From the sequence record PV659873.1: a stretch of 64,000 nucleotides of DNA. The stretch is one strand, 5' to 3'. The stretch's first letter is position 1, and each line of letters begins with the position of its first letter. Positions 54,687-56,696 of the stretch are shown one piece after another. The notes under the pieces are model-generated. The model did no database searches, had not been told where the DNA came from, and worked only from the letters and a program-made list of their open reading frames with translations. Source of the DNA: Escherichia phage WPEC1. The translations under genes were made by a program, and so were the position numbers.

Positions 54687-56612
54687 CTACAAAATTGCGC
54701 ATATTTTATCCTCCTCATATCTGATCTTATCACAAAATGATATACAATTGCAAGCATTCCATCACTTCATAAGCGCCCAGTTTGCTGCTGTTAGGCACCA
54801 TTAACGCGAATACATCACCAACAACCAGGTTTTCTACGCTTGACGGATGATTCCATCCTTTAAGGATTTTACCGCCATTGTGCAACCGTCGCCAAATGCT
54901 TCATTTTTATGATCCATCACTTCATAAGCGCCCAGTTTGCTGCTGTTAGGCACCATTAACGCGAATACATCACCAACAACCAGGTTTTCTTTGGATTTAC
55001 ATTTGCAAATCGGTTGAACTAATTGGTTAATGGAGGTAATATGTTTAGTAAAGAAATGAGAGAGGTGATGGATTTACATTTGCAAATCGGTTGAACTAAT
55101 TGGTTAATGGAGGTAATATGTTTAGTAAAGAAATGAGAGAGGTGACCGATTTACATTTGCAAATCGGTTGAACTAATTGGTTAATGGAGGTAATATGTTT
55201 AGTAAAGAAATGAGAGAGGTGACCGCTACTCTGGTAGTTGATCATGGTGTTGAAGTTGAGCGTCACATTTGGAAAGATGAGCCTCCTTTCTTTGATTTAT
55301 TCCTTCCTCCTCAAATTATTAACGAAACCGCATGACTAAATCTTGGTTCAGATATAACCTCTGCTACAGTCACATACAGGATAGTTGGCAATCCATGCTT
55401 TATAGAAGCGAAGCAATGTTGCACTGCTCAACGGAATATTATTTGTCATTTTTTTGGATAGTTGGCAATCCATGCTTTATAGAAGCGAAGCAATGTTGCA
55501 CTGCTCAACGGAATATTATTTGTCATTTTTTTTTCCTTCATAATCCTGAATTCTATCTAGCACCCATTGTATACGATGTTTGTTTTTATGGCAAATATGT
55601 TTTTTATGCATACTCCTAGTATCCTTTTTAATTTCTACAAAGAGGATGGAGTATTTAAAAATCCAGATATAATTCTTATTGACGAGTCTATTGGCGATAT
55701 ATGGATCATAAAAGGACGGGTAAATTTTCTTATATCGTAGTGTCTATAGATAAAGATAGTTTACATACTCCTAGTATCCTTTTTAATTTCTACAAAGAGG
55801 ATGGAGTATTTAAAAATCCAGATATAATTCTTATTGACGACATCTGTTGTTGCAGCAAATACGCTCATTTCAGGCTTCTTCGGACCACCAGTAGCTGCTT
55901 TTAAAAATGGACTTGTCATTCTGTTGTTGCAGCAAATACGCTCATTTCAGGCTTCTTCGGACCACCAGTAGCTGCTTTTAAAAATGGACTTGTCATTCTT
56001 CATTCTCCTCTTCTGCATTTCTTATATATGGTGAAACACCGTACTCTTTAGCTACTTTAACCCAATCGTCCCTGGATTGTAGAATGTCCTATATGTGCAG
56101 AGGATGATTATTGTAAAGAAGGCTTATGCGATAATAAATTTGAGATGAAGATGATGTAGAATGTCCTATATGTGCAGAGGATGATTATTGTAAAGAAGGC
56201 TTATGCGATAATAAATTTGAGATGAAGATGAGTCATTTGAAAAGGGGTGGCCTTCCTTGCCGTTGTTCTAAATATTATCATTACACTCCTGAACAATGGG
56301 CCTAATAAGACTCATCAGCATCGTAGAAAGGAGAGATGCGACTTAAGTCAAGACCTTCTTGTAAGAACCAGTTAAAATTTCCGTCAAATTCTTCTTCAAT
56401 TCTAGGGTCTTCTCCTACAGCCTCTTCCCATTTATTAAAAGGTGCACCCTGTAACAAAAGGGTTGCCAGAAAACTTTCTCTTTTACTCATGGTTTTCTCC
56501 TTCTCTCACACCTCTTCTGGTTGCCCTTCATTAAATGATTTATTGGTTTGTAGTGTAGTCAGGTAGCACACGACACTTTGACTGTCGTAGGTTTGGTTCA
56601 AATCCAGACAAA
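54687..56612. repeat. module array A5: about 25 blocks
   Basis: Includes tandem triplet of one block (54993-55226), doublets at 55850-56000 and 56080-56232, and a truncated tRNA-Gln copy at its 3' edge. Confidence 0.9.
56544..56610 (+). pseudogene. truncated tRNA-Gln copy
   Basis: Duplicate of the first ~67 nt of tRNA-Gln 56621-56696 lacking the 3' acceptor strand. Confidence 0.7.
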
Positions 56613-56620
56613 TGATTTAT

Positions 56621-56696
56621 TGGTTTGTAGTGTAGTCAGGTAGCACACGACACTTTGACTGTCGTAGGTTTGGTTCAAATCCAGACAGACCAGCCA
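56621..56696 (+). tRNA. tRNA-Gln(TTG)
   Basis: Acceptor TGGTTTG/CAGACCA, anticodon stem CGACA/TGTCG, loop CTTTGAC, CCA encoded. Confidence 0.7.

Follow-up and report, generated by a model that had tools for sequence, protein, structure and literature searches.

Partial copies of tRNA-Gln in the Escherichia phage WPEC1 record very probably stem from untrimmed k = 77 assembly-graph pieces

The stretch of record PV659873.1 analysed here (64,000 nucleotides, referred to as the window) belongs to Phapecoctavirus, the phAPEC8-like E. coli myoviruses, and carries a complete tRNA-Gln, which ARAGORN and Rfam both call where the initial annotation had placed it (Table 1), which closes into a cloverleaf on folding and which has its 3' CCA encoded. 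An exact 77-nt block, here called R (AAATGATTTATTGG...AAATCCAGAC) and made up of an 11-nt leader and nt 1-66 of tRNA-Gln(UUG), occurs three times in the window: twice in direct tandem, the first copy running into the second as ...GGTTCAAATCCAGAC|AAATGATTTATTGG..., and once as an exact reverse complement. The initial annotation had described a partial copy upstream of the gene and an inverted block of ~77 nt inside an array labelled A7. Both are present, with boundaries corrected to 56533-56609 and 62549-62625, and the 3' acceptor strand is indeed lacking, with tRNA nt 67-76 missing from both truncated copies. As to extent, the inverted block is as described, but it forms part of a copy twice as long as had been claimed: 62549-62703(-) matches 56457-56609 over 153 nt with 1 mismatch, T at 56532 against a G that sits in the middle of the 155 nt of the inverted copy. 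This match is far beyond chance; the genome of the unscrambled relative ESCO37 contains zero repeated 60-mers.

Both truncated copies are called as tRNAs by ARAGORN and Rfam, the tandem one at 56544-56616 (73 nt, 45 bits) and the inverted one at 62542-62612(-) (39.9 bits, with non-standard acceptor pairs marked by Rfam). The 73-nt call arises only because the leader of the second copy of R supplies a chance pseudo-acceptor strand. A functional tRNA has a complete cloverleaf, a paired 7-bp acceptor stem and a 3' end; neither truncated copy does, and in neither is the acceptor stem closed in the minimum-energy fold. Given that both scores exceed the Rfam tRNA gathering threshold (29 bits), tRNA software alone does not flag these copies.

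The mismatch defines a variable nucleotide (site f) that lies 12 nt upstream of tRNA-Gln in native sequence and is T in ESCO37. The arm with G consists of R (62549-62625), the variant (62626) and the left flank L (62627-62703); it has 1 mismatch in 155 nt to each of the 16 closest phage records, and a 100% match to it was found in none of the 70 matching phage records. L itself ends the long segment named unitig e->f, which carries the tRNAs Met, Arg, Ser, (Tyr), Asn, Thr and Gly, and is found also at 56457-56531, 31424-31498 and 62627-62701; in the T arm it is directly preceded by an unrelated block of site c (56304-56456). The left flank of the T arm (56455-56531) has 75 nt in common with native sequence against 77 expected and at least 77 in the G arm, a shortfall for which trimming of ends by the software, or another variant at f-76, could be responsible. 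To the right, unitig f->g holds the genuine tRNA-Gln, tRNA-Pro, tRNA-Ile and a 79-nt Met-like tRNA. The pieces are embedded in arrays of short elements: one-sided elements of ~78-84 nt and two-sided elements of ~150-157 nt make up the array upstream of the tRNA-Gln feature, and the array downstream of unitig f->g holds proper graph walks with 77-nt overlaps left untrimmed (L_c L_c ... L_cR_c R_c R_c). A fold-back junction is also seen at 59291-59441: here the reverse complement of the right-hand site c block comes straight after the block itself.

Three further observations concern the other tRNAs. A tRNA match at 40749-40833 (+) (Rfam, 39 bits) has no ARAGORN call and is unannotated in ESCO37; it is annotated as tRNA-Tyr in the records of the sibling phages WPEC2, WPEC4 and WPEC6. 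The spacer at 56858-56936 (+), which separates tRNA-Ile from the 79-nt Met-like tRNA, has a cloverleaf-like fold with a GGTTCGAATCC T-arm (z = -2.4), has no Rfam tRNA match at E <= 1 and no ARAGORN call, and may be a degenerate tRNA. Lastly, the 79-nt 'tRNA-Met' at 56937-57015 (+) has its anticodon at position 37 (Rfam, 50 bits), and its counterpart in phage Mt1B1_P17 is annotated as tRNA-Pseudo-CAT / tRNA-OTHER.

Table 1. Features around tRNA-Gln and examples of short elements at other variable sites (positions in the window; lettered sites are breakpoints).
Feature	Position	Strand	Remarks
Unitig e->f	31501..41570	+	ESCO37 46576-56632, collinear; ends at f-2
tRNA-Gly	41411-41484		in unitig e->f
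Left k-mer 'L' of site f	41494-41570	+	final ~77 nt of unitig e->f
One-sided element, L of site f + 1-3 nt (~k+1)	about 31422..31501	+	between a block of site h and the start of unitig e->f
Array upstream of the tRNA-Gln feature	54758..56456	.	sites p, l, b, a, d, k, n, c
Left flank L of the T-allele bubble arm	56457..56531	+	75 nt common with native sequence upstream of tRNA-Gln
Variable nucleotide (site f)	56532	+	T here, G in the inverted arm; bubble centre
Block R, copy 1	56533-56609	+	exact 77-mer; right k-mer of the T-allele arm; 'partial tRNA-Gln'
Block R, copy 2	56610-56686	+	abuts copy 1 (direct tandem); opens unitig f->g
Complete tRNA-Gln	56621-56696	+	ARAGORN; Rfam match 56621-56693, 55 bits
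Unitig f->g	56610..57597	+	ESCO37 56634-57621, 100% identity
tRNA-Pro	56702-56778		in unitig f->g
Array downstream of unitig f->g	57597..59445	.	sites c, b, o, h, i/j, a, l, g
Array 'A7' with the inverted G-allele arm	61826..63601	.	sites n, e, i/j, f, l, m, g, d
G-allele bubble arm	62549..62703	-	155 nt = L(77)+G+R(77) = 2k+1; within array 61826-63601
Block R, inverted copy	62549-62625	-	reverse complement, exact
Site c elements (examples)	28938-29092, 29727-30031, 30657-30961, 41724-41875, 56304-56456, 57833-57991		
Site o elements	29253-29571, 30193-30340, 30962-31109, 58142-58289		in-frame ATC (Ile) insertion
Site b elements	5015-5325, 16747-16907		start codon of ESCO37_00183 homologue, ATG -> ACG or ATA
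Site a elements	4861-5015, 41564-42029, 45174-45326, 55456-55608		variants in RBS-ATG spacer of ESCO37_00256 homologue

The partial tRNA-Gln is, as had been supposed in the initial annotation, an instance of a block phenomenon that fills the arrays of the window. It is one of 14 tandem duplications (56533/56610 among them) whose in-register spacing is exactly 77 nt; a spacing of 79 occurs in 1 event and spacings of 75, 76 or 78 in none. When the window is mapped onto the 149-kb ESCO37 genome as reference, it resolves into about 18 long segments, each collinear with ESCO37 but scrambled in order and orientation, and 86 short elements lying between them, which total ~10.3 kb, or 16% of the window. 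All 86, as mapped, extend from breakpoint-77 to breakpoint, from breakpoint to breakpoint+77, or over both intervals (42 one-sided, 44 two-sided, the latter with a median of 154 nt), and the endpoints of segments and elements form b-77 / b / b+77 triplets. Copies of two-sided elements vary only at their exact centre and keep 74-77 invariant nt on each side at all 12 of the sites with at least two copies. Of the maximal exact repeat pairs (n = 436), 421 fall within 71-83 nt, 77 being the commonest length (n = 120); exact repeat pairs of 84-150 nt number 0, and a single 151-nt match covers two adjacent blocks. Repeated 78-83-mers do exist and a hard cut-off at exactly 77 is not seen, these longer exact repeats being compatible with chance extension at pasted junctions. 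Several element lengths are 1-2 nt off the simplest prediction for k = 77. Element boundaries are ambiguous by 1-3 nt where neighbours match by chance, and the order of the elements follows graph adjacency in some places only.

Blocks of the same 77-nt length derive from protein-coding genes, from a ribosome-binding-site (RBS) spacer and from a terminator T-run. They abut, and the 0-4 nt between them are the variable site itself. A CRISPR-like or cassette array was considered and rejected, as no conserved repeat or recombination site separates the units. Inspection by eye of 16 breakpoints revealed no common motif of the kind expected of a nick, recombination or restriction site, and several breakpoints cut through genes, such as those for an exonuclease (site d), an ATPase (site m) and a member of the structural cluster (site h). 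Two blocks (5636-5790 and 62291-62445) and gaps such as 10712-12222 have no counterpart in ESCO37 and presumably come from parts of the phage that are absent in ESCO37.

At the centre of the site c elements (ESCO37 34461) 3 positions are biallelic, and each of the 8 possible haplotypes is represented by exactly one of the 8 copies. The site c variants alter two neighbouring codons in the gene for a small hypothetical protein (ESCO37_00168 homologue), giving K/R/E/G x D/N, with all 8 codon combinations present and every change nonsynonymous; they may reflect genuine microdiversity of the phage stock. The central variants at sites o, b and a likewise look biological rather than like random error.

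In its unique regions the window is 100% identical to three other records, Escherichia phages WPEC4 (PV682947.1), WPEC2 (PV691511.1) and WPEC6 (PV763039.1), all from hospital wastewater in Thailand with EC3.18 as host, and 99-100% identical to normal relatives such as ESCO37 and Mt1B1_P17. (A search of the literature on WPEC phages or host EC3.18 returned nothing relevant.) The tRNA cluster Met-Arg-Ser-(Tyr)-Asn-Thr-Gly-Gln-Pro-Ile-Met is unbroken in ESCO37 and in WPEC2, WPEC4 and WPEC6, each of which has one tRNA-Gln adjoining tRNA-Gly; in the window the cluster is split, and 15 kb separate Gly, which ends at 41484, from Gln, which starts at 56621. The tRNA-Gln region is single-copy in the three siblings, and the 77-nt duplication is absent from them and from the 68 phage records that cover the locus. 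Moreover, when the pieces in the window are joined with their overlap collapsed (unitig e->f + T + R + the rest of f->g), the product matches WPEC4, WPEC2 and WPEC6 at 100.000% over 5,064 nt without a gap.

The sibling records are not free of the problem. They are labelled 'complete genome' and measure 155-159 kb, against about 149-151 kb for relatives, and exceed normal Phapecoctavirus genomes by 4-10 kb. WPEC4, WPEC2 and WPEC6 are scrambled at common breakpoints, with a large-scale order that differs in each. The window, to which none of them corresponds over its whole length, is a fourth arrangement and so derives from one more assembly of an identical or nearly identical phage. The breakpoints g, k and c of the window recur in all three with different partners; past site g (ESCO37 about 57622), for example, WPEC4, WPEC2 and WPEC6 each run into a different distant segment. 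At f, and in WPEC6 at l, m and n, all sites at which the window is broken, the siblings are unbroken. Since partners differ at the common breakpoints and other breakpoints are unbroken, the breakpoints are specific to an assembly and not properties of the phage. The arrays of WPEC6 hold blocks from sites c, a, g and o, families that the misassembled or concatenated sibling records have in common with the window, and in the array region that we inspected these 77-nt blocks are annotated with small 'hypothetical protein' CDSs. Unlike the window, the siblings have the Gly-Gln junction intact and lack the tRNA-Gln duplication.

Here, we propose that the partial copy of tRNA-Gln and its inverted twin are an artefact of assembly or finishing, in which pieces with k = 77 were joined untrimmed, and on the evidence of the sequence we consider this highly probable. 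The copies are not a feature of the phage DNA, nor does the window reproduce the phage chromosome faithfully; the real DNA has a single tRNA-Gln, next to tRNA-Gly. According to this proposal, the window would consist of de Bruijn-graph pieces (k = 77) strung together with arbitrary order and orientation and with their k-nt overlaps kept. A phage stock that carried minor variants at some 15-20 places, either single positions or small clusters, would give rise to graph bubbles: a long unitig would break off with the 77-mer that precedes a variant (L), the next would open with the 77-mer that follows it (R), and every allele or haplotype would give a short edge of its own, composed of L + variant + R and about 2k+1 = 155 nt long. 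Variants set close together would yield additional edges, some of k+1 to k+4 nt and, in the middle of a cluster, some of ~152 nt, and the lengths of the site c elements agree with both. At the tRNA-Gln locus the variant would be the T/G 12 nt upstream of the gene, with the T arm (56457-56609) written directly before the unitig that opens with the same R (56610...), so that R stands twice in tandem, with the G arm written elsewhere and reversed (62549-62703), and with the tRNA-Gly unitig that ends in L written 15 kb away (ends 41570).

What a graph with k = 77 leads one to expect is what the window contains: an anatomy of blocks whose repeats are bounded near k, variation confined to block centres, tandem spacing of k, and perfect collapse to a collinear genome. 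The identity of the assembly software is something that we infer from k, since SPAdes by default goes up to k = 77 on 150-nt reads, and the central variants were presumably present in the reads. Two claims of the initial annotation are not supported. Structured RNA genes had been said to be sampled as blocks, but no sampling takes place in the phage: the boundary of the block is set by the variable nucleotide 56532 and not by the tRNA, and the 77 nt downstream of that nucleotide make up the block; and the block had been called tRNA-sized, but 77 would be the k of the assembler, the same length recurring in blocks from protein-coding sequence, RBS spacer and terminator. The similarity between block size and tRNA length is a coincidence.

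Neighbouring edges of a de Bruijn graph (such as a SPAdes graph at k = 77) overlap by exactly k, so pasting them untrimmed yields a tandem k-mer, just as is found at 56533/56610 and in 13 other places. The usual trace of k-overlap in phage records is one k-length repeat at both ends of a circular contig; the window differs from this ordinary trace in stringing dozens of graph pieces, even tiny ones, into a 'complete genome'. SPAdes assembly is known to create overlapping sequences at contig ends, which need to be removed (Unicycler paper, PMC5481147). The short elements also resemble the unpopped SNP bubbles of a polymorphic viral population, with one L(77)+variant+R(77) element for each allele or haplotype. 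Normally, however, one arm of a bubble is kept and the others are dropped or left as small contigs, whereas the window embeds all arms, in both orientations.

Could the repeats instead be real? Phage genomes do undergo tandem duplications, and the copies do stand in the sequence as given, which would suit a true 77-bp tandem duplication 5' of tRNA-Gln, by slippage or unequal recombination, together with a true inverted duplication 6 kb away. Such a duplication would nevertheless be one of 14 with an identical spacing of 77 nt, among hundreds of repeat pairs capped at ~77 nt, and would start exactly 1 nt past a variable position at which the inverted copy carries the other allele; it is missing from siblings that are 100% identical in sequence, and it would lie in a window that also splits the tRNA cluster and several genes over distant segments. 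We regard it as very improbable. The window could also be thought a faithful assembly of aberrant molecules, be they chimeras of library ligation or rearranged and defective genomes. Sequencing libraries do contain chimeric molecules, and the fold-back 59291-59366 / 59367-59441 (R_c, then its reverse complement) looks like a chimeric artefact. Chimeras, though, would have arbitrary lengths rather than exact-k units anchored on SNP positions and would not yield one copy per haplotype, and the blocks join at an end 77 nt from the variable site, a position that is physically meaningless, all of which makes this explanation extremely unlikely.

A truncated tRNA near a full gene is likewise what integrase attL/attR duplications look like, and partial tRNA duplication is a classical mark of integrase-mediated insertion, so a remnant of site-specific integration into the tRNA gene has also to be weighed. 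Against it, the direct copies abut with nothing inserted between them, neither an integrase nor any other element; it is the 5' part with its leader that is doubled, not the usual 3' part, over a length that equals k and not that of an att core. The interval from the direct to the inverted copy holds ordinary phage sequence and block arrays, and the same geometry recurs at 13 other places that are not tRNAs. The probability of integration is in our view negligible. On the block anatomy we reject the readings as integration site, as slippage and as chimeric molecules. Finally, the block arrays could be physically present in phage DNA, in a genome cut at ~15-20 fixed sites with its 77-bp flanks rejoined in all orientations, to which we give hardly any credence; it is much likelier that only the central variants are real and that the phage stock is a swarm, in which, for instance, eight versions (K/R/E/G x D/N) of a pair of neighbouring codons in one small protein exist side by side.

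In light of the tRNA-Gln copies being very probably pasted graph pieces, what do they mean for work on these phages? Their significance is one of data hygiene only and amounts to a warning about the affected database records. The window and at least the WPEC2, WPEC4 and WPEC6 public 'complete genome' records carry kilobases of pasted graph fragments, which produce spurious tRNA calls (two extra tRNA-Gln in the window), split real genes and suggest rearrangements and repeat arrays that are false. Scans for repeat systems, counts of tRNA genes and synteny work are misled by the WPEC records. A quick screen can recognise records of this kind by exact repeats capped at k, variation at block centres only and a tandem spacing equal to k.
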